This document shows, in pieces, positions 1-41,578 of a stretch of 43,809 nucleotides of DNA; position 1 is the stretch's first letter, and each line of letters opens with the position of its first letter. The translations under genes and the position numbers were made by a program. Origin of the DNA: Klebsiella phage KP34; the sequence record NC_013649.2. One strand, written 5' to 3'. Under the pieces are notes generated by a model. That model was not told the origin of the DNA and did not search any database. It saw nothing but the letters and a program-made list of their open reading frames with translations.

Positions 1-216
1 CCCTCACCCTGAACGCGCCCAATTGCCCCCATAGGGGGTGCCTAGCGCATAAAAGGAGGGGGCGGGGTGCCCCGGTGGGCCTACTAGGGCGCACTAGAGC
101 GCCTCAGCGGGCCTGTGCTGCGTTCTAGGGCTATCGCTAGTGTTACCCTATGGCTATGCCTGTGCGTGGCACTGCGTGGCTCCTGTGCGCTCTCTGTGGG
201 CCATAGGGGTGCGCTC
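1..216. repeat. Left copy of the direct terminal repeat (DTR); identical to 43594..43809
   Basis: Positions 1-216 (ccctcaccctgaacgcgcccaattgcc ... ggggtgcgctc) recur exactly at the right end of the window. Terminal redundancy is the hallmark of T7-like linear genomes. Confidence 0.9.
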
Positions 217-14816: not shown

Positions 14817-14984
14817 ATGAAAATGGGAATCTGTTCTGTACTGGGCCTTATCTTTGTAACCCTGAAACTGACTGGTGTTATCGCCTGGTCCTGGCTGTGG
14901 GTGTTGCTCCCGTTCTGGGGGCCTATTGTAGTTGGCGTAGTTCTGGTGTTCTTGGTGGCGGCCCTCAAAGCCGCCTCACGATAA
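14817..14984 (+). CDS. Small hydrophobic membrane protein (55 aa); missed by the ORF track
   Basis: SD GGAGAT 5 nt before ATG 14817. Translates MKMGICSVLGLIFVTLKLTGVIAWSWLWVLLPFWGPIVVGVVLVFLVAALKAASR (two predicted TM segments). Confidence 0.55.
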   Translation: MKMGICSVLGLIFVTLKLTGVIAWSWLWVLLPFWGPIVVGVVLVFLVAALKAASR

Positions 14985-16168: not shown

Positions 16169-16447
16169 ATGCGCATAATCACATGGGCCAAAGAACAGTA
16201 CGCCGTGTTTCTGCTTATGCGCTCACAGCGTTTGCAGAAGCGTGCAAACGACTGGTACTGGGCGGCTAACTCACACGCACACAGGGCGAGCCTTCTGGGC
16301 AACGAGATTAGTGCACACCGCTATCACCTGACTCGCCAGTGCGCCAAGTCCCGCCGCCGTGCATACGCCCTGGGCGCAGAGGCTACGGCCACTGAGACCA
16401 AAGCACACAATTTCATTTCAAAACACAAACTGAAAGGATTTGACTAA
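16169..16447 (+). CDS. Hypothetical protein (92 aa)
   Basis: ORF with SD GGGGGT; start abuts the previous stop. Confidence 0.55.
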   Translation: MRIITWAKEQYAVFLLMRSQRLQKRANDWYWAANSHAHRASLLGNEISAHRYHLTRQCAKSRRRAYALGAEATATETKAHNFISKHKLKGFD

Positions 16448-16815
16448 TGGACAAAGTACTGAATGCATACAAGAATCTGGCTATCGCAGTCAGTGCTGTA
16501 GTGTACGATGCTGCGGTGTACGGGGTACGTGTCCACCGCCTAGACGACGTCTATGACGCCCTGGACAAGCTGGCCGCCCTGTACGGGATGGACTTGGAAC
16601 TGGCCGCCACCGCCTTCAAGGAGCATAACGACCTGTCGGCACATGCCGACAAGTTGAAGGGCGATGACCTAGTGCTTATCCGCATTGTAGGCACCCTCAG
16701 CATCGGCCTGGCGGAGATTGGGTCCTGTATCTACGACATAGACCAGAGCCTGCGTACGCCGGAAGTAATCGGGGACATGCTCGGCACTGTCCTGGTCCTC
16801 TCTGAATTGGGGTGA
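16447..16815 (+). CDS. Hypothetical protein (122 aa)
   Basis: ORF with SD AAAGGA; TAATG overlap with the previous stop. Confidence 0.6.
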   Translation: MDKVLNAYKNLAIAVSAVVYDAAVYGVRVHRLDDVYDALDKLAALYGMDLELAATAFKEHNDLSAHADKLKGDDLVLIRIVGTLSIGLAEIGSCIYDIDQSLRTPEVIGDMLGTVLVLSELG

Positions 16816-16979
16816 TGCTGATGCTATACTTATCTCGTGCAATTTATGTAGCTTTGATTCTCCCACTAATCCCATTGGCGGGACTCTGCTACCTGGGCGA
16901 CAAGCTCAGCAAGGCAAAGTGGGCGGAGCGTTGGGTTAACTGGGCCGACAAGAAGGCCAGAGACATCACGGGGCGCTGA
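16815..16979 (+). CDS. Small membrane protein (54 aa); missed by the ORF track
   Basis: TGATG overlap with the upstream stop; its stop overlaps the HNH start (TGATGA). Translates MLMLYLSRAIYVALILPLIPLAGLCYLGDKLSKAKWAERWVNWADKKARDITGR (N-terminal TM helix). Confidence 0.55.
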   Translation: MLMLYLSRAIYVALILPLIPLAGLCYLGDKLSKAKWAERWVNWADKKARDITGR

Positions 16980-36677: not shown

Positions 36678-37601
36678 ATGGCATTCAGCTGGCAAGAACA
36701 AATCAAGCCAGCTGGTACCCAGGATATCCAGTGTGATATTGAGTATTTGGACAAGTCCTATATTCATGTATATCTCGACGGCGTTGAAACCACTGGATAC
36801 ACCTGGACCAGCGCTACTAATATCAGGTTAAATACAGCCTTGGCAGCAAGCACTACTGTGCTACTAATCCGTAAGACAGAGCGAGAGTATCTGTACATTG
36901 AATTCGCCAGTGGTTCTCCGTTCATTGAGGTAAACGTAGACTCCCAAAACACACAGTTCTTACATCTGGCGCAAGAACTGGTGGAGGGCCGTGCTATCCC
37001 CGGATTCTATGGCACTATTAGTATGAACGGGTATCGCATAACTGACTTAGCCAACCCAATTAACTCCCAGGATGCTGCTACTAAGTCGTACGTCGACGCT
37101 GCTGACGCCTTACTGGGGCAGCGTATTGACGTAGAGGCTGCTACGCGGAAGGCAGCTGACGATGCTTTGAGTATGCGTACGTCCGCTCTGGAGAACACCT
37201 TTATAAGCGGAGTGGAGACAGTAAGTTACCCTTGGAGTACAGTGTTAGCCGAGGCTACAGATGAAGTAACTCCCGGCTTGGCCTTCACTAAGGCTGTAGT
37301 GGAGATTAATGGAGTTGGACAGATTCGTGGTTACAGTTTCGAGATTGTAGACAACACCATACTGTTTGCCAAGACCCTCCCCGCCGGAACGGTTGTGGCT
37401 GCCCGACTGGGGGCCGACGTAACCGCAGGGGACGGCTTCGCTACACAAGCGTCTGTGGACTATTTGGCGGACTCTCTGGGGGATTTGGCATATCTTGATA
37501 CAGCCGAAGCTGTGCCTGATGCAACAGGTGCCGGAGATGTAGTGGCTAAACTAAATGCTCTGCTGGCATCTCTGCGTACCAGCGGGGTACTGGCTTCATA
37601 A
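36678..37601 (+). CDS. Tail fibre / adaptor protein with T7 gp17-like N-terminal anchor domain (307 aa)
   Basis: N-terminus MAFSWQEQIKPAGTQDIQCDIEYLDKSYIHVYLDGVETTGYTWTS...IRLNTA...LIRKTE follows the pattern of the T7 gp17 N-terminal tail-attachment domain. Short C-terminal part. Confidence 0.75.
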   Translation: MAFSWQEQIKPAGTQDIQCDIEYLDKSYIHVYLDGVETTGYTWTSATNIRLNTALAASTTVLLIRKTEREYLYIEFASGSPFIEVNVDSQNTQFLHLAQELVEGRAIPGFYGTISMNGYRITDLANPINSQDAATKSYVDAADALLGQRIDVEAATRKAADDALSMRTSALENTFISGVETVSYPWSTVLAEATDEVTPGLAFTKAVVEINGVGQIRGYSFEIVDNTILFAKTLPAGTVVAARLGADVTAGDGFATQASVDYLADSLGDLAYLDTAEAVPDATGAGDVVAKLNALLASLRTSGVLAS

Positions 37602-37612
37602 TAGGAGAAAAT

Positions 37613-37915
37613 ATGGCAGGGGCGGCTAAACGTAGTCGCCTCTCGGAGCTGCACCGCATGTTCACTGAGGCCTTGATTGAAGAAATCAAGCAGTCTAAGG
37701 AAGATGAGGTGCCACTCCCCGCCGCGGATAAATCGGTTATCGCTAAGTTCTTGAAGGACAATGACATCACCGCGGATGCAGATTCCGAGGAGATGCAGGA
37801 CCTTCGTGACGAGTTCGATGACGAGCTAGCGGCGCGTAGAGAGGCGCGTAAGAAAGAGATTTTAAACAAGATTAGTGGTTCAGACTCTGAGGACTTACTA
37901 GAAGGAATTGTATAA
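37613..37915 (+). CDS. Terminase small subunit, T7 gp18-like (100 aa)
   Basis: Small acidic protein immediately upstream of the large terminase; SD AGGAGAAAA. Confidence 0.7.
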   Translation: MAGAAKRSRLSELHRMFTEALIEEIKQSKEDEVPLPAADKSVIAKFLKDNDITADADSEEMQDLRDEFDDELAARREARKKEILNKISGSDSEDLLEGIV

Positions 37916-39771
37916 TGGTATCGGTGAAGACTGCGCGAAGACTGCGCATGCTCAACCAGAAACTTACTGGTTATAGTGCGAATCCGCGCAGTATTCCCAA
38001 AGAGGAGCGCGAGGACATCGCGCTGATGATGGCCGCTGCTCTAAGCGACTTCCGGGAATTCGCATACATCGGTATGCGGTTCCTGGGCTTTACTCTCACG
38101 GACATGCAGGCTGACATTGCAGAGTACATGCAGAAGGGCCCCAGGAAGCGCATGGTGGCCGCGCAGCGTGGGGAGGCTAAGTCTACACTGGCTGCACTGT
38201 ACGCCGTCTGGAGGCTTATCCAGGACCAATCCTGCCGCATCCTGATTGTGTCTGGTGCAGAGAAGCAGGCGTCTGACGTAGCGAACTTAATCATTCGTAT
38301 GCTGGAAACCTGGCCGCTGCTGTGCTACTTGAAGGCTGACCCTACACGTGGGGACCGAACCTCCTTTGAAGGTTACGACGTACACTGTGACCTGAAACCT
38401 CTGGATAAGTCCGCCAGCGTAGCCTGTGTAGGTATCACTGCATCCCTGCAGGGGAAGCGTGCGGACCTGCTGATTCCAGACGATATCGAGACCACCAAGA
38501 ACGGCTTAACGCAAACCCAGCGTGAGCAGCTGCTGACGATTTCTAAAGACTTCGCGGCCATCTGTACGCACGGGGATACGCTGTACCTGGGTACACCACA
38601 GACCAAGGACAGTATCTATAAAACCCTGCCGGGACGTGGCTTCGAGGTGCGCGTGTGGCCCGGGCGCATTCCGTCGATTGAAATGGAAGAGCGATATGGA
38701 AGTACACTTGCTCCTTATATCCTGGAGCTTATTGAGCGCGGCTATAAACGCACCGGCTTCGGTGTCGACGGGACGCTAGGGGAGAGCACGGACCCCGGGC
38801 GCTATGACGAGGATGCGCTGATTGAGAAGGAGCTGGACTTTGGTCCAGAAGGCTTCCAGCTGCAGTACATGCTCGACACCACTCTGTCCGACCAAATGCG
38901 TACGCGCATCAAGCTTTCGGATATGCTGGTTTACTCCGGCAGCCAGGATTCATCCCCGGAGACGTTCTCCTACATCGCGGACCGCCGGTACCTGTACCAG
39001 CATGAGCATGAGGGGATTATGGGCCAGCAGATGTATTTCCCGGCATTCTACGGGGACATGCACCTACCGTACCAGCATAAGGTGCTGGTGGTGGACCCGG
39101 CTGGTTGCGGCGGAGACGAAGTGTCCTATGCTGCTGGGGGTGCTGCGAACTCGTACATTCACCTATTCTCCGTGGGTGGCTTCCAAGGAGGTATCAGCGA
39201 AGAGAACATTGATAAACTGATTGACCTGTGCGTAGAGTTGGATATCCCGGATATGGTGGTGGAGAGCAACATGGGGCATGGCACCGTGTCTATGCTTATC
39301 CTGAACCGGCTGCGGGAGCGACGCATCGCCGGTATCGGCGTAAGGGACCTGAACAACTCCACGCAGAAAGAGCGTCGTATCATAGACACAATCAGCCCAG
39401 TTACCCGCCGTCATCGCCTGGTGGTGCATGAGCGCGCTATTCACGACGATATCAGCACCTGTATGGCGTACTCCCGAGATAGACGTTGGTTGTACTCTGC
39501 GTTCGCGCAGTTATCCGGTATCACATACGACCGCGGTAGTCTGGCGAAGGATGACCGAGCCGACGCAATCGCCATGATGGTGGCTACGCTGAATGGGCAC
39601 CTGGTGGAAGATGAGAAAGTGGTGGCTGAGCGTGAATCTGAGAAGATGGCTCGGGCCTTCATTGAGAACCCTCTGGATTGGGCACAGAACAAAGTGTCTA
39701 AGGGCCTTCGGGGTGTAGCTGCTCGGCTGCAGAACCGCGGCAGAGGTAAACAACATAGAGGAAGAAGATAA
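37915..39771 (+). CDS. Terminase large subunit, T7 gp19-like (618 aa)
   Basis: ATPase P-loop-like AAQRGEAKST, and a C-terminal RNase-H-like nuclease region (VVVDPAGCGGDEVSYAAGG...). Size and position. Confidence 0.9.
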   Translation: MVSVKTARRLRMLNQKLTGYSANPRSIPKEEREDIALMMAAALSDFREFAYIGMRFLGFTLTDMQADIAEYMQKGPRKRMVAAQRGEAKSTLAALYAVWRLIQDQSCRILIVSGAEKQASDVANLIIRMLETWPLLCYLKADPTRGDRTSFEGYDVHCDLKPLDKSASVACVGITASLQGKRADLLIPDDIETTKNGLTQTQREQLLTISKDFAAICTHGDTLYLGTPQTKDSIYKTLPGRGFEVRVWPGRIPSIEMEERYGSTLAPYILELIERGYKRTGFGVDGTLGESTDPGRYDEDALIEKELDFGPEGFQLQYMLDTTLSDQMRTRIKLSDMLVYSGSQDSSPETFSYIADRRYLYQHEHEGIMGQQMYFPAFYGDMHLPYQHKVLVVDPAGCGGDEVSYAAGGAANSYIHLFSVGGFQGGISEENIDKLIDLCVELDIPDMVVESNMGHGTVSMLILNRLRERRIAGIGVRDLNNSTQKERRIIDTISPVTRRHRLVVHERAIHDDISTCMAYSRDRRWLYSAFAQLSGITYDRGSLAKDDRADAIAMMVATLNGHLVEDEKVVAERESEKMARAFIENPLDWAQNKVSKGLRGVAARLQNRGRGKQHRGRR

Positions 39772-40145
39772 TGGCATCAATCATCGCGGCTAAAACTGCG
39801 GACGTACAGTACGCCATTGTAGGTACGTGCCAGAACCTGGAGAAGCAGGTGCAGCCGGACTACAACGTAGGCTTCGTAGGTACGACCGCCCTGACTAAAC
39901 TGAACTCGTTCTTCACGTACATGCAGTCCCAGGGCTATACGGCTACCCGTGCCGGTACAGCCTTCAAGGATGATGGTACGCTGCAGGCGCGCCTGTTCAG
40001 CATGCTCTCACAGCTCTCTAAGACTGGCTACGTCGCCCTTACGGGTACAGGTATGCCGCTCGGTGAGGGTTCTGGTACAGCGTTTGATGATTCGTTCACC
40101 GCACTGCAGAGTGCGTTCGTAGCCGCCACTGACGCGGCAGAATAA
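39771..40145 (+). CDS. Hypothetical protein (124 aa)
   Basis: ORF with SD GAGGAAGAAG; ATAATG overlap with the terminase stop. Confidence 0.6.
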   Translation: MASIIAAKTADVQYAIVGTCQNLEKQVQPDYNVGFVGTTALTKLNSFFTYMQSQGYTATRAGTAFKDDGTLQARLFSMLSQLSKTGYVALTGTGMPLGEGSGTAFDDSFTALQSAFVAATDAAE

Positions 40146-40155
40146 GGAGAGTACA

Positions 40156-40314
40156 CATGGCAATTGCAAAAGCAACCCCAGCGCAACAGCAGGAACTGCT
40201 GCGTCAGCTGAACATTCTCAGTAAGGACCTGTACACCATCCTTACGCAGCCGCAGGATGTGTCTCAGACTGGTGCTGCCTTCGATACCAAGATTGCTGCG
40301 CTCGAGCCGCGGTA
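40156..40314 (+). CDS. Hypothetical small protein (52 aa); missed by the ORF track
   Basis: Strong SD AAGGAGAG (40143-40150) before ATG 40156. Translates MAIAKATPAQQQELLRQLNILSKDLYTILTQPQDVSQTGAAFDTKIAALEPR. Confidence 0.45.
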
Positions 40315-40337
40315 GCCGCAGTGAAGGCTGCTAGCTA

Positions 40338-40742
40338 ATGCGTAAACTGGTCGCTGGGTTACTGCTCGCGGTTACTCTGACTGGTTGCTCGGCGACCTCT
40401 GCACTCACCGGCTTAGTTGGTTCTAAGCCGGATGTATCTGCTCAGGTTGGTGCCGAGAATACCAAGCAAACCGTTGGCCTGAACAACAAGGTGGACTCCA
40501 GCACCACCAACAAAACCGATGTACAGGATTCTAACGTAGGCACCCTGGATACTTCTAGCAAGAAGCAAGTGCAGACTATTAGTACCGGCACAATCCAGGC
40601 AGAGCGCCTGCAGGTGGTTAACAATGATAGTTACAGTCTTATCCTCGCCGGATTAGCTGGGGCCAGCATTCCTCTGGTCTTCCTAGTGGTCGTTCTGGTG
40701 ATTCGTAAGCTATTCAGGAAGAAGGGGCAGCAGGATGATTAA
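40338..40742 (+). CDS. Unimolecular spanin-like lipoprotein: N-terminal lipoprotein signal (lipobox LTGC) plus C-terminal transmembrane helix (134 aa)
   Basis: MRKLVAGLLLAVTLTGCS... (signal peptide plus lipobox Cys). Ser/Thr/Asn/Val-rich, probably beta-rich middle. C-terminal TMD LILAGLAGASIPLVFLVVVLVI followed by RKLFRKKGQQDD. This topology matches the u-spanin of phage T1 (gp11). It lies directly upstream of the holin and endolysin; no Rz/Rz1 pair is present. Confidence 0.6.
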   Translation: MRKLVAGLLLAVTLTGCSATSALTGLVGSKPDVSAQVGAENTKQTVGLNNKVDSSTTNKTDVQDSNVGTLDTSSKKQVQTISTGTIQAERLQVVNNDSYSLILAGLAGASIPLVFLVVVLVIRKLFRKKGQQDD

Positions 40743-40986
40743 GGTGGGAGACACGGTTGGGGCAGACCTCGCTACCCGGGCAGGTGCAGCAGTTACCGGC
40801 GCTACGGTATCAGGAGGTTGGTTGGCAGAGTTAATGAGCTGGAACTGGAGCACTATCAGCTTCATCACTGCGACAGTGTGCGCAGTGCTAACCCTGGCGT
40901 GGAATGCGTATTACAAGCGGCGTACATTCAAGCTACTAGAGGAGCAGGCACGTAAGGGGACTATTAAATATGAGTTTAAGGACTAA
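40735..40986 (+). CDS. Holin, probably pinholin-type (83 aa, two TMDs, charged C-terminus)
   Basis: TMD1 Gly/Ala-rich and weakly hydrophobic (AGAAVTGATVSGGWLA). TMD2 WSTISFITATVCAVLTLAW. C-terminus YYKRRTFKLLEEQARKG. Overlaps both neighbouring lysis genes. Confidence 0.65.
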   Translation: MIKVGDTVGADLATRAGAAVTGATVSGGWLAELMSWNWSTISFITATVCAVLTLAWNAYYKRRTFKLLEEQARKGTIKYEFKD

Positions 40987-41578
40987 GGTTATTGCGGCCC
41001 TCACGGGGGCCACTATGCTCGGCGGTGCCATTACCGGAGTAGTCCAGCACAACGAAGGGTTGAGCCTTACTGCCTACAAAGATAGCGCAGGTATCCCCAC
41101 TATTTGCTACGGCGAGACCAAGGGCGTTAAAATGGGCCAGAGAGCCTCTCTGAACGATTGTCAGAAGCAACTGATACAATCAGCAGGGGAACACGCAAAG
41201 GCTCTTGACGGGCTTCCTATGCAGCTCTCTGACGTAGCCCTGGTTGGGTCCATAGACTTCATTTATAACGTAGGCGTAGCTGGCTTCAACGGCAGCGCCG
41301 TAAAGCGCCACCTCAAAAGCCTGGATTACGCGGCAGCTGGAAAGGCTGTACTGGACTGGCGCTATATTAGCAAGTACCAGAATAAGTCCCCCGGCACTGG
41401 CTGGGTGTACAAGGGCAGCAATCGCTGGACCTTCGACTGCTCCCAGTACATTAACGGGCGGCGCAATAAAGTGTGCTGGGGCCTATGGGAGCGCAGGCAG
41501 TGGCAGAGCAAAGCCATTGGGAACCAGTACAAGAACGTTAACGCAGCAGTATCTGCCCTAATTAAATCTGGAGGATAA
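40970..41578 (+). CDS. SAR endolysin (T4-lysozyme-like muramidase, GH24) with N-terminal signal-arrest-release domain (202 aa)
   Basis: N-terminal weakly hydrophobic Gly/Ala-rich segment KVIAALTGATMLGGAITGVV (SAR). Catalytic triad spacing E-x8-D-x5-T in HNEGLSLTAYKDSAGIPTICYGET, as in T4 lysozyme E11/D20/T26. Confidence 0.85.
   Translation: MSLRTKVIAALTGATMLGGAITGVVQHNEGLSLTAYKDSAGIPTICYGETKGVKMGQRASLNDCQKQLIQSAGEHAKALDGLPMQLSDVALVGSIDFIYNVGVAGFNGSAVKRHLKSLDYAAAGKAVLDWRYISKYQNKSPGTGWVYKGSNRWTFDCSQYINGRRNKVCWGLWERRQWQSKAIGNQYKNVNAAVSALIKSGG

Follow-up and report, generated by a model that had tools for sequence, protein, structure and literature searches.

The lysis cassette of Klebsiella phage KP34: a u-spanin of the T1 gp11 family upstream of a predicted pinholin-type holin and a SAR endolysin

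Described cassettes and the layout of the locus

The lysis genes of the KP34-like podophages have a substantial descriptive record. Eriksson et al. 2015 (PMC4411677 section 3.7) presented the cassette, with the spanin first, as a hallmark of the KP34-like genus; the same gene order was given for Phimunavirus in 2018 (Buttimer et al. 2018, PMC6115819); and Kongari et al. 2018 (PMC6139136) placed KP34, F19, and NTUH-K2044-K1-1 in the T1 gp11 family of unimolecular spanins (u-spanins), in which almost every member is accompanied by a pinholin and a SAR endolysin. The same reading of the cassette is found across PMC4411677, PMC6115819, PMC6139136 Table 5, and PMC10194101. It has also been reported that T1 gene 11 complements a lambda Rz/Rz1 defect, a result obtained for T1 gp11 only (PMC6139136), and as of 2018 there were no physiological or biochemical data on u-spanin function (Kongari et al. 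2018, PMC6139136). No experiment on a Drulisvirus lysis protein came up in our literature search, and all lysis-gene assignments in these phages rest on homology and motifs. Knowledge of Drulisvirus lysis hence appears to be wholly in silico, and data on u-spanin complementation or on holin topology would be new.

The window analyzed here, 43,809 nucleotides of Klebsiella phage KP34 (NC_013649.2), spans an entire Drulisvirus (KP34-like) genome, including its 216-bp direct terminal repeats, and is ~93% identical as a whole to its nearest relatives in the collection compared. Positions 40338-41578 harbor three overlapping genes on the + strand, which encode a lipoprotein (134 aa), a holin (83 aa), and a SAR endolysin (202 aa), in a position 3′ of the terminase large subunit gene and 5′ of the tailspike gene (table 1). 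The holin ATG lies within the 3′ end of the u-spanin gene (8-nt overlap), the endolysin ATG lies within the 3′ end of the holin gene (17-nt overlap), and the tailspike ATG at 41579 abuts the endolysin TAA without a gap. A preliminary description of this DNA had given the same three-gene order, lengths, overlaps, and abutting tailspike, all of which proved exact when the coordinates were checked. In scans for sigma-70 promoters and intrinsic terminators across 37000-43809, the counts did not exceed those of shuffled sequence and nothing convincing was detected beside the cassette; tRNA and Rfam scans of the whole genome returned 0 matches. The region is very probably the standard lysis cassette, expressed late, of a KP34-like (Drulisvirus) Klebsiella podophage.

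Table 1. Features of the KP34 lysis cassette, with positions in the 43,809-nt window
Feature	Coordinates	Strand	Evidence
u-spanin gene, T1 gp11 family	40338..40742	+	ORF, BLASTP to T1 gp11, PHROG 1804
Lipoprotein signal peptide ending in lipobox LTGC	40338..40388	+	Pfam LPAM_1
Predicted u-spanin C-terminal TM helix, ~residues 101-122, then basic cytoplasmic tail RKLFRKKGQQDD	40638..40703	+	Hydropathy, AlphaFold
Holin gene, class II, predicted kin to P21 S and HP1 pinholin families	40735..40986	+	PF04971, PHROG 20, BLASTP to S21
Holin TMD1 candidate, residues 16-34, AGAAVTGATVSGGWLAELM, SAR-like, inferred	40780..40836	+	Hydropathy, conservation
Holin TMD2, ~residues 39-60, then basic C-terminal tail	40849..40914	+	Hydropathy, alignment to S21 TMD2
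SAR endolysin gene, T4-lysozyme-like, kin to P21 R	40970..41578	+	PF00959, 3HDE match, PHROG 7
Predicted SAR domain, residues 7-25, VIAALTGATMLGGAITGVV	40988..41044	+	Hydropathy, alignment with 3HDE/4ZPU
Catalytic triad Glu29 (41054-41056), Asp38 (41081-41083), Thr44 (41099-41101)	41054..41101	+	Alignment

The three genes were collinear in 236 of the 251 matching phage records, which argues against a chance arrangement. Homologs of the u-spanin were detected in 1167 of 50,697 phage records, and the 134-aa gene is already labeled “u-spanin” or “spanin” in the records of close relatives. These observations leave little room for the novelty that the preliminary description had seen in the locus: u-spanins, which it called rare, are widespread and labeled as such; their pairing with a pinholin and SAR endolysin, which it considered uncommon, is the rule in the T1 gp11 family (PMC6139136); and the spanin-first order, which it considered unusual, was published in 2015 (PMC4411677) and again in 2018 (PMC6115819). 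Its functional reading of the region as a u-spanin, a pinholin-type holin, and a SAR endolysin with no Rz/Rz1 pair was correct on homology, and a reading of the sequence alone had hence recovered the correct functional assignment. The cassette is already known and ordinary: the therapeutic Klebsiella phages of this genus are well sampled, and it is one of their textbook features.

The SAR endolysin and the holin

The 202-aa protein scored 73.7 bits on Pfam PF00959 and was assigned to PHROG 7 (“endolysin”). Its best solved-structure matches were 3HDE and 4ZPU, lysozymes of the P21 R/RrrD type, and the alignments began at residue 2, thereby including the N-terminal membrane segment. This segment (residues 7-25) exhibited a hydropathy of 1.82 and a content of 58% Gly, Ala, Ser, or Thr, with Arg4 and Lys6 preceding it and the catalytic Glu29 located just after. 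Glu29, Asp38, and Thr44, spaced as E-8-D-5-T, were invariant in six aligned endolysins drawn from Drulisvirus, Stompvirus, Phimunavirus, and T1. The SAR endolysin proposed at the outset was thus corroborated by the PF00959 match, the small-residue N-terminal segment, the 3HDE alignment, and the invariant triad; judged by these features, the protein is a SAR endolysin of the P21 R type, with export and pmf-dependent release predicted. Among SAR endolysins, R21 is regulated by refolding and P1 Lyz by disulfide caging. Residues 1-28 of the KP34 endolysin contain no Cys, and this absence from the SAR domain would suggest refolding control as in R21 instead of disulfide caging as in P1 Lyz. A match to the NCBIfam BgtA endolysin model (40 bits against a cut-off of 315) was sub-threshold and uninformative.

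The 83-aa holin matched PHROG 20 (“holin”) with an E value of 8.5e-17 and reached 26.5 bits on Pfam PF04971 (P21 holin S), a marginal score against the gathering cut-off of 26.0. A BLASTP comparison with S21 aligned W29-R63 (E 4e-5; ~31% identity over 35 aa). PF04971 was precomputed in 28 of 35 holin homologs, and related holins, which scored 20.3-28.6 bits on this family with some at 20-24, also matched PF16080 (HP1 holin), lying near the thresholds of both. This pattern of affinities points to a pinholin-type holin related to the P21 S and HP1 families, with the pore type being predicted.

The KP34-like holin has been described as a class III protein with one TMD on the basis of TOPCONS/TMHMM (PMC4411677; PMC10194101). 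TMD2 was clear, at residues ~39-58 by hydropathy, and exhibited a small-residue spacing of S42-A46-A50. Residues 16-34, the candidate TMD1, are weakly hydrophobic with 63% Gly, Ala, Ser, or Thr, and a scan that required a hydropathy of 1.6 detected no TMD1. When TMD1/TMD2 were scored on one scale, the KP34 holin gave 0.98/1.55 (residues 16-34 and 38-56) and S21 gave 0.64/1.72; the established TMD1 of S21 scores lower still, so that threshold-based predictors would miss that one too. The same G/A/S/T-rich segment was kept in relatives down to 60% identity. These properties suggest a two-TMD topology, and the single TMD and class III placement given in the literature probably reflect a predictor artefact. 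Of the two-TMD pinholin-like holin first proposed, TMD2 and, at a marginal score, the family signal (PF04971) were recovered, while TMD1 is a weak candidate.

The dual-start (holin/antiholin) motif of the S21 type is absent from the KP34 holin, which has a single start (M-I-K). A dual start composed of ATG 40735 and GTG 40744 was rejected: relatives vary at codon 4 among Val, Pro, Ala, Leu, and Ile, so that the GTG is not a conserved start. An internal start at Met34 was likewise discarded, its sole Shine-Dalgarno-like sequence (GGAGG) being located 17 nt upstream and thus too distant.

Under a different reading, which we consider unlikely, the 83-aa protein would be a canonical large-hole holin of class III with a single TMD, and the SAR endolysin would be triggered by the depolarization that any holin causes. 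SAR endolysins do also work with non-pinholin holins, as P1 LydA illustrates, and the title of a preprint on phage N4 reportedly names a SAR endolysin-holin system. The single TMD given by TOPCONS/TMHMM (PMC4411677; PMC10194101), the empty hydropathy scan at 1.6, a PF04971 score at the gathering threshold, and the missing dual-start motif would all be accommodated in this way. The same reading is harder to reconcile with the S21 TMD1, whose score (0.64) is below that of the KP34 segment (0.98), with the conservation of the G/A/S/T-rich segment down to 60% identity, and with the holins of Drulisvirus, Stompvirus, and Phimunavirus, which point to the PF04971 and PF16080 pinholin families.

The u-spanin and the search for Rz/Rz1

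The 134-aa protein exhibited 42% identity to T1 gp11 over 125 aa (BLASTP, E 4e-26) and matched PHROG 1804 (“Rz-like spanin”) with an E value of 6e-52. The T1 gp11 family has been delimited by ≥40% identity to a member along ≥40% of the length (Kongari et al. 2018), a range in which the KP34 protein falls; its identity to five other members of the family was 30-48%. A match to NCBIfam spanin2_3 (22 bits against a cut-off of 80) was sub-threshold and uninformative. The signal peptide was supported by Pfam LPAM_1 (20.3 bits, cut-off 20), and Cys17 (40386-40388), the lipid attachment site, was invariant across 34 representatives of the T1 gp11 family. Position +2 after this Cys is occupied by Ser, and Asp was never seen there in the family; with Ser in place of Asp, the inner-membrane retention signal is lacking and the protein would therefore be directed to the outer membrane. 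Cys17 is also the sole Cys of the protein, leaving its periplasmic part without any, in agreement with the family-wide pattern of an 80-96-aa periplasmic part free of Cys followed by a C-terminal TMD with a basic tail. In KP34, the hydropathy maximum of 2.64 (19-residue window, residues 104-122) is immediately followed by the basic tail RKLFRKKG, and AlphaFold placed a helix at residues 98-128 with a pLDDT of 75-88.

The periplasmic part was less informative. Two AlphaFold2 runs gave a mean pLDDT of 51 (16-sequence alignment) and 58 (34 more diverse sequences), and both of these low-confidence models contained a short helix at residues 18-26, an unstructured stretch at 31-83 (pLDDT <50), and 0 strands. 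Secondary-structure predictors have given the T1 gp11 family a pattern of one short helix and then at least four beta strands (PMC6139136). Because AlphaFold gave no confident periplasmic domain, a mechanism based on beta-sheet collapse finds no support here. With regard to the preliminary description, the beta-rich periplasmic region that it had claimed was therefore left unconfirmed by the two models, whereas its signal peptide with the lipobox LTGC (LPAM_1 above the cut-off, Cys17 invariant in the 34 representatives) and its C-terminal inner-membrane anchor (hydropathy 2.64 plus the basic tail) were upheld; the T1 gp11-like topology that it had recognized was exceeded, as T1 gp11 is an actual sequence homolog (42% identity, E 4e-26). 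By homology and motifs, the 134-aa protein is a u-spanin of the T1 gp11 family, predicted to be a lipoprotein of the outer membrane whose C-terminus is anchored in the inner membrane.

Small phage lipoproteins can also act in exclusion, and the 134-aa protein could in principle be a superinfection-exclusion or receptor-blocking protein in the manner of T5 Llp or the Cor proteins, with the outer membrane being disrupted by other means. Such a role might be argued from the failure of our literature search to find a functional test of the Drulisvirus protein and from the location of the gene upstream of the holin in place of the usual downstream spanin position. We regard it as very improbable in view of its 42% identity with a protein that complements an Rz/Rz1 defect, T1 gp11 (PMC6139136), and of the preserved C-terminal inner-membrane anchor, for which exclusion has no need. 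In two phage families, moreover, the gene is always found beside those of the holin and the endolysin, whatever the gene order, and there is no other spanin candidate in the genome.

The assignment of a u-spanin was accompanied by a genome-wide search for the usual two-component alternative. A permissive lipobox scan from every start codon in the six frames of the whole genome returned the 134-aa gene as the sole match on the + strand, in agreement with the earlier statement that no lipobox ORF is embedded in the holin or endolysin genes. No + strand ORF of the genome combines a lone N-terminal TMD with a long periplasmic domain after it. Three small membrane proteins (14817-14984, 16447-16815, and 16812-16979), which fall in PHROGs without assigned function, were considered as spanin subunits and rejected for their wrong architecture and their location in the early/middle region. 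Nowhere does the genome offer an Rz/Rz1 candidate.

Just upstream of the u-spanin gene is a small gene (40157-40315), the product of which belongs to phrog_7375 and comprises 60 aa in relatives; no transmembrane segment and no signal sequence were detected in it. In relatives, its stop overlaps the u-spanin start (TAATG), which suggests co-expression. In KP34, an apparent 1-nt deletion near position ~40304 has frameshifted the gene at its 3′ end and the last 8 codons are lost. In the Phimunavirus locus examined, the corresponding interval, from the terminase gene to that of the u-spanin, also contains a small ORF. The GenBank record of phage KPPK108.1 labels the two proteins “putative lysis Rz protein” and “putative lysis Rz1 protein”, as if the small protein were Rz-like and the 134-aa protein its Rz1 partner, an annotation that the TAATG overlap with its suggested co-expression might favor but that we rejected and hold to be extremely improbable, because the small protein has no TMD or signal sequence and so cannot be an inner-membrane spanin subunit, its PHROG has no assigned function, its gene is frameshifted here, and the 134-aa protein possesses an inner-membrane anchor of its own, absent in Rz1-type proteins. 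There is a slim chance that the small soluble protein is an overlooked fourth component or regulator of the spanin-first cassette. If so, the spanin-first order would answer a functional need, such as loading of the spanin before holin triggering, rather than being a historical accident, and the KP34 frameshift would provide a natural variant for testing.

Predicted course of lysis and comparison with known systems

The gene structure, homology, motifs, and conservation observed above can be set against P21 and T1, and from these two systems we infer each of the dynamic steps that follow. Late transcripts running on from the terminase genes would allow translation of the three overlapping genes. 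The SAR endolysin would be exported by Sec and build up in inactive form on the periplasmic face of the inner membrane, held there by its weakly hydrophobic N-terminus. The u-spanin would be lipidated at Cys17 and sorted by Lol to the outer membrane, its C-terminal helix being left in the inner membrane; with the lipid end in the outer and the helix in the inner membrane, it would bridge the two through the peptidoglycan, which its periplasmic stretch of ~85 residues would thread. The S21-like holin would presumably build up in the inner membrane until, at a critical concentration, its weak TMD1 exits the bilayer, and oligomers of TMD2 would then form small pores that collapse the proton-motive force. 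Depolarization would free the SAR endolysin, which would refold and degrade the murein. Once the murein is gone, a conformational change of the u-spanin would disrupt the outer membrane, probably by fusion with the inner membrane, and virions would be released.

The individual components resemble those of P21 and T1 to different extents. The holin aligns to S21 across the end of TMD1, the loop, and TMD2, and differs in lacking the dual-start antiholin motif that S21 has; the endolysin shares with R21 an alike SAR segment and E-D-T triad (3HDE). The spanins differ in kind and in place: P21 has a two-component Rz/Rz1 embedded downstream of the endolysin, whereas KP34 has a u-spanin upstream of the holin. 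With T1, the closest kinship is in the spanin, gp11 sharing the AQVGAENTKQ motif, the lipobox, and the C-terminal TMD. The T1 endolysin gp12 is 27% identical with the N-terminal segment included, and the T1 holin gp13 has only a faint kinship, confined to the C-terminal 35 residues (E 5e-6), and no PF04971 match. The order in T1 and other Drexlerviridae is holin, endolysin, spanin (gp13, gp12, and gp11 in T1), in contrast to the spanin-first order of KP34.

In phiKMV, from a related podophage lineage, the cassette is also at the right genome end with a pinholin and SAR endolysin, as outlined in PMC4411677. Unlike KP34, phiKMV has a two-component spanin (Rz, Rz1; Briers et al. 2011) after the endolysin. 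The two cassettes exhibit ~30% similarity over 22% coverage (PMC4411677). A closer correspondence was found with Phimunavirus and Stompvirus, podophages that infect other hosts (Pectobacterium and Dickeya) and are classified in another subfamily (Corkvirinae): the order u-spanin, holin, SAR endolysin, tailspike is identical and the genes overlap, with u-spanins 40-43% and endolysins 55-62% identical, and one of the two endolysins is without a 16-residue insertion at ~142-157.

Within Drulisvirus itself, the cassettes already described for KP34 and the genus have the same three genes in the same order with a holin of 83 aa (PMC4411677). Phage SU503 shares 92.4% identity along 90% of the right-hand 25 kb; its spanin differs at 2 residues. 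The endolysin analyzed here is 3 aa longer at the C-terminus than in relatives of the genus, a feature that goes with the tailspike module. The u-spanin is 96-100% identical to those of the described members and the cassette region exhibits 92-94% DNA identity, and the differences from them are at the level of strains only.

Genome layout and the context of the lysis cassette

The first and last 216 bases of the window are identical, so direct repeats mark both termini and the window holds the linear phage genome in full. The coding share on the + strand amounts to 95%; scans of the window detected neither tRNA genes nor Rfam families. The coordinates that the preliminary description had assigned to the three lysis genes all agreed with the ORF list and the raw sequence. 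A megablast search with the 1.7-kb cassette retrieved 251 phage records, 232 of them from Klebsiella phages, and in 236 records a single match spanned at least 80% of the query. The relatives fetched were classified as Autographiviridae, Slopekvirinae, Drulisvirus. Since the right-hand 25 kb reached at most ~93% identity to any record in the collection (phage SU503 is ~92% identical to the window), the genome represents a somewhat divergent member of the heavily sampled Drulisvirus.

Features of the Klebsiella phage KP34 window in order of position
Feature	Position	Strand	Remarks
Terminal repeat, left	1-216		direct, perfect, 216 bp
Stretch without + strand ORF of at least 40 aa	468-1019		552 nt; early region, behind terminal repeat
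Stretch without + strand ORF of at least 40 aa	12861-13202		342 nt; precedes metallo-phosphoesterase gene
Small predicted membrane protein, 55 aa	14817-14984		two hydrophobic segments
Small predicted membrane protein, 122 aa	16447-16815		two hydrophobic segments
Small predicted membrane protein, 55 aa	16812-16979		one hydrophobic segment
Small gene adjoining u-spanin gene upstream	40157-40315		phrog_7375, unknown function
u-spanin gene, 134 aa	40338-40742	+	ORF list and raw sequence
Holin gene, 83 aa	40735-40986	+	ATG 8 nt within 3' end of 134-aa gene
Endolysin gene, 202 aa	40970-41578	+	ATG 17 nt within 3' end of holin gene
Insertion in endolysin, residues ~142-157	41393-41440		before conserved DCSQ…VCWGLWERRQWQSKAIG block
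Endolysin-tailspike junction	41560-41600		similarity to most relatives stops
Tailspike gene, 630 aa	ATG 41579	+	ATG abuts endolysin TAA
Terminal repeat, right	43594-43809		direct, perfect, 216 bp

Outside the cassette, three small predicted membrane proteins of unknown function in the early/middle region (PHROGs 1374, 6607, and 7652) were considered as spanins and rejected, as their architecture is not spanin-like. The two stretches listed are the largest that lack a + strand ORF of at least 40 aa. The PHROG match of the metallo-phosphoesterase behind the second begins only at residue 30, so the crude ORF picker used here may have miscalled its start codon.

Holin and SAR endolysin

The holin exhibits one clear hydrophobic segment at residues ~39-58 and a weaker segment rich in Gly, Ala, Ser, and Thr at residues 16-34. 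It matched the P21 holin S family (Pfam: PF04971) with 26.5 bits at a gathering score of 26, and the same family was precomputed in 28 of its 35 database homologues. The Stompvirus and Phimunavirus holins that occupy this position scored close to threshold for PF04971 as well as for the HP1 holin family (PF16080), the HP1 holin reportedly being described as a pinholin in one paper. The sequence of the P21 pinholin S21 used here was validated by its full-length PF04971 match (122 bits); its W27-R61 region aligned by BLASTP with W29-R63 of the holin (E 4e-5). On the Kyte-Doolittle scale (19 residues), the first and second holin segments reached 0.98 and 1.55, against 0.64 and 1.72 for the two experimentally established TMDs of S21, so threshold-based predictors would miss TMD1 in both proteins. 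Published analyses did assign a single TMD to the holins of KP34-like phages (PMC4411677) and of JKP2 (PMC10194101), and a one-TMD holin forming large holes is the only rival reading that retains some weight, though we consider it improbable. We favor the predicted S21-like topology of two TMDs; the dual-start motif of S21 is absent from the window holin.

The N-terminus of the endolysin carries R4 and K6, followed by VIAALTGATMLGGAITGVV and, four residues further, the catalytic Glu29. The protein matched Pfam Phage_lysozyme with 73.7 bits, and its top solved-structure matches were 3HDE, the P21 SAR endolysin (labelled 'Lysozyme' in the search output), and 4ZPU. Both alignments start at residue 2 and thus cover the N-terminal membrane segment. 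Residues E29, D38, and T44, with the spacing E-8-D-5-T, did not vary when the protein was aligned with endolysins of Drulisvirus, Stompvirus, Phimunavirus, and T1. The SAR segment lacks Cys, which, by analogy with work on R21 (the P21 SAR endolysin) and P1 Lyz, suggests that refolding, and not disulfide caging, regulates the enzyme. The C-terminal ~65 residues fall outside any Pfam family; the Drulisvirus proteins bear an insertion of ~16 residues, SPGTGWVYKGSNRWTF, which is lacking in the T1 endolysin gp12 and in the Dickeya phage endolysin.

At the junction with the tailspike gene, similarity to most relatives breaks off in the final ~20 nt of the endolysin coding sequence. The window endolysin is longer by 3 aa (…LIKSGG), the extra codons including the tailspike ribosome-binding site GGAGGA. 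Among the relatives aligned at the junction this extension was common only to pKP-M186-2.2, and megablast matches continued through the tailspike gene start only in pKP-M186-2.2 and GZMU_VR401. Accordingly, tailspikes seem to be swapped at a breakpoint inside the endolysin gene, at its 3' end.

The u-spanin and the search for a second lipoprotein

The N-terminus of the 134-aa protein, MRKLVAGLLLAVTLTGC, runs from a basic start through a hydrophobic core to the lipobox LTGC and matched the Pfam lipoprotein attachment-site model right at threshold. The residue at +2 after Cys17 is Ser, not the inner-membrane-retaining Asp. Residues 104-122 exhibit the top hydropathy among all + strand ORFs of the window (2.64) and are followed by the tail RKLFRKKG. 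The protein matched PHROG 1804 ('Rz-like spanin') over its full length (E 6e-52), and the topology previously likened to that of the T1 u-spanin gp11 turned out to reflect homology, as BLASTP against translated T1 gene 11 gave 42% identity over 125 residues (E 4e-26). Alignment with the spanins of T1, e4/1c, and CY1 (Drexlerviridae), Dickeya phage BF25/12, and Pectobacterium phage Gaspode revealed that L-x-G-C-S, SAL, and AQVGAENTKQ make up a conserved core. That the protein is instead an exclusion lipoprotein is unlikely because of this homology and its constant association with holin and endolysin.

HMMER, run over all 1.84 billion cluster representatives, yielded only 49 u-spanin clusters at 50% identity, so the family is narrow in sequence diversity; it is common among isolates, with tblastn matches in 1167 of 50,697 phage records. 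Across 34 representatives, the lipid-attachment Cys was invariant, Asp never occurred at +2, the periplasmic part comprised 80-96 residues, and every intact member ended in a TMD followed by a basic tail; wherever the signal Cys had been identified correctly, the periplasmic part was free of Cys. The same properties were reported by Kongari et al. 2018 (PMC6139136), whose Table 5 names KP34, F19, and NTUH-K2044-K1-1 as T1 family members. Two AlphaFold2 runs (pLDDT 51 and 58) gave no confident fold for the periplasmic part, for which a beta-rich make-up and a beta-collapse model have been proposed, modelling a helix at residues 18-26 and leaving residues 31-83 unstructured. The u-spanin in PQ049254.1, a record named for an Acinetobacter baumannii phage (vB_AbaP_Indie), is 99.3% identical to that of the window, which suggests that either the host is an unexpected one or the record is mislabelled.

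The search for an embedded lipobox ORF, proposed in the preliminary description, was run over the whole window from each ATG, GTG, and TTG in six frames with a permissive lipobox and a hydrophobicity filter. Only the 134-aa gene passed on the + strand, no second lipoprotein ORF being found there, and the three minus-strand loci that passed were all antisense to genes. In the adjoining upstream gene, a 1-nt deletion near 40304 relative to three relatives shifts the frame to a TAG stop (52 aa vs 60 aa) and removes the TAATG in which its stop codon would overlap the u-spanin start codon; the deletion may be genuine or reflect an error in sequencing. In OK583892.1 (phage KPPK108.1, 1319-1905), the u-spanin carries the label 'putative lysis Rz1 protein', and the small soluble protein encoded upstream of it is called 'putative lysis Rz protein'. 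These labels are untenable, since the supposed Rz has no membrane segment.

Proposed mode of action, pairing, and gene order

If the cassette acts as its P21 and T1 homologues do, the SAR endolysin should be exported and kept inactive on the inner membrane, while the u-spanin would bridge the inner and outer membranes through the murein. Holin triggering would then depolarize the membrane and set the endolysin free to degrade the wall, whereupon the freed u-spanin would disrupt the outer membrane. The literature searched yielded no experiments on the lysis proteins of Drulisvirus.

The preliminary description was correct in its functional reading of u-spanin, pinholin-type holin, and SAR endolysin, but the cassette is already known, and its supposed unusualness is contradicted by literature and databases. 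All but two T1-family members sit in pinholin and SAR endolysin cassettes, and a SAR endolysin is encoded by 29 of the 46 u-spanin phages whose endolysin could be identified, so that the pairing described as uncommon is the norm; u-spanins, called rare, were present in 58 of 677 genomes surveyed, a minority rather than a rarity (Kongari et al. 2018, PMC6139136). The position of the spanin gene upstream of the holin is real but not unusual, having been contrasted with phiKMV in a 2015 description of the proposed 'Kp34likevirus' genus (PMC4411677) and described again in 2018 for 'Phimunavirus' (PMC6115819). Drulisvirus, Stompvirus, and Phimunavirus share the order terminase, small ORF(s), u-spanin, holin, endolysin, and tailspike, whereas T1, e4/1c, and CY1 have holin, endolysin, and u-spanin, which marks the spanin-first order as a lineage trait of these podophages.
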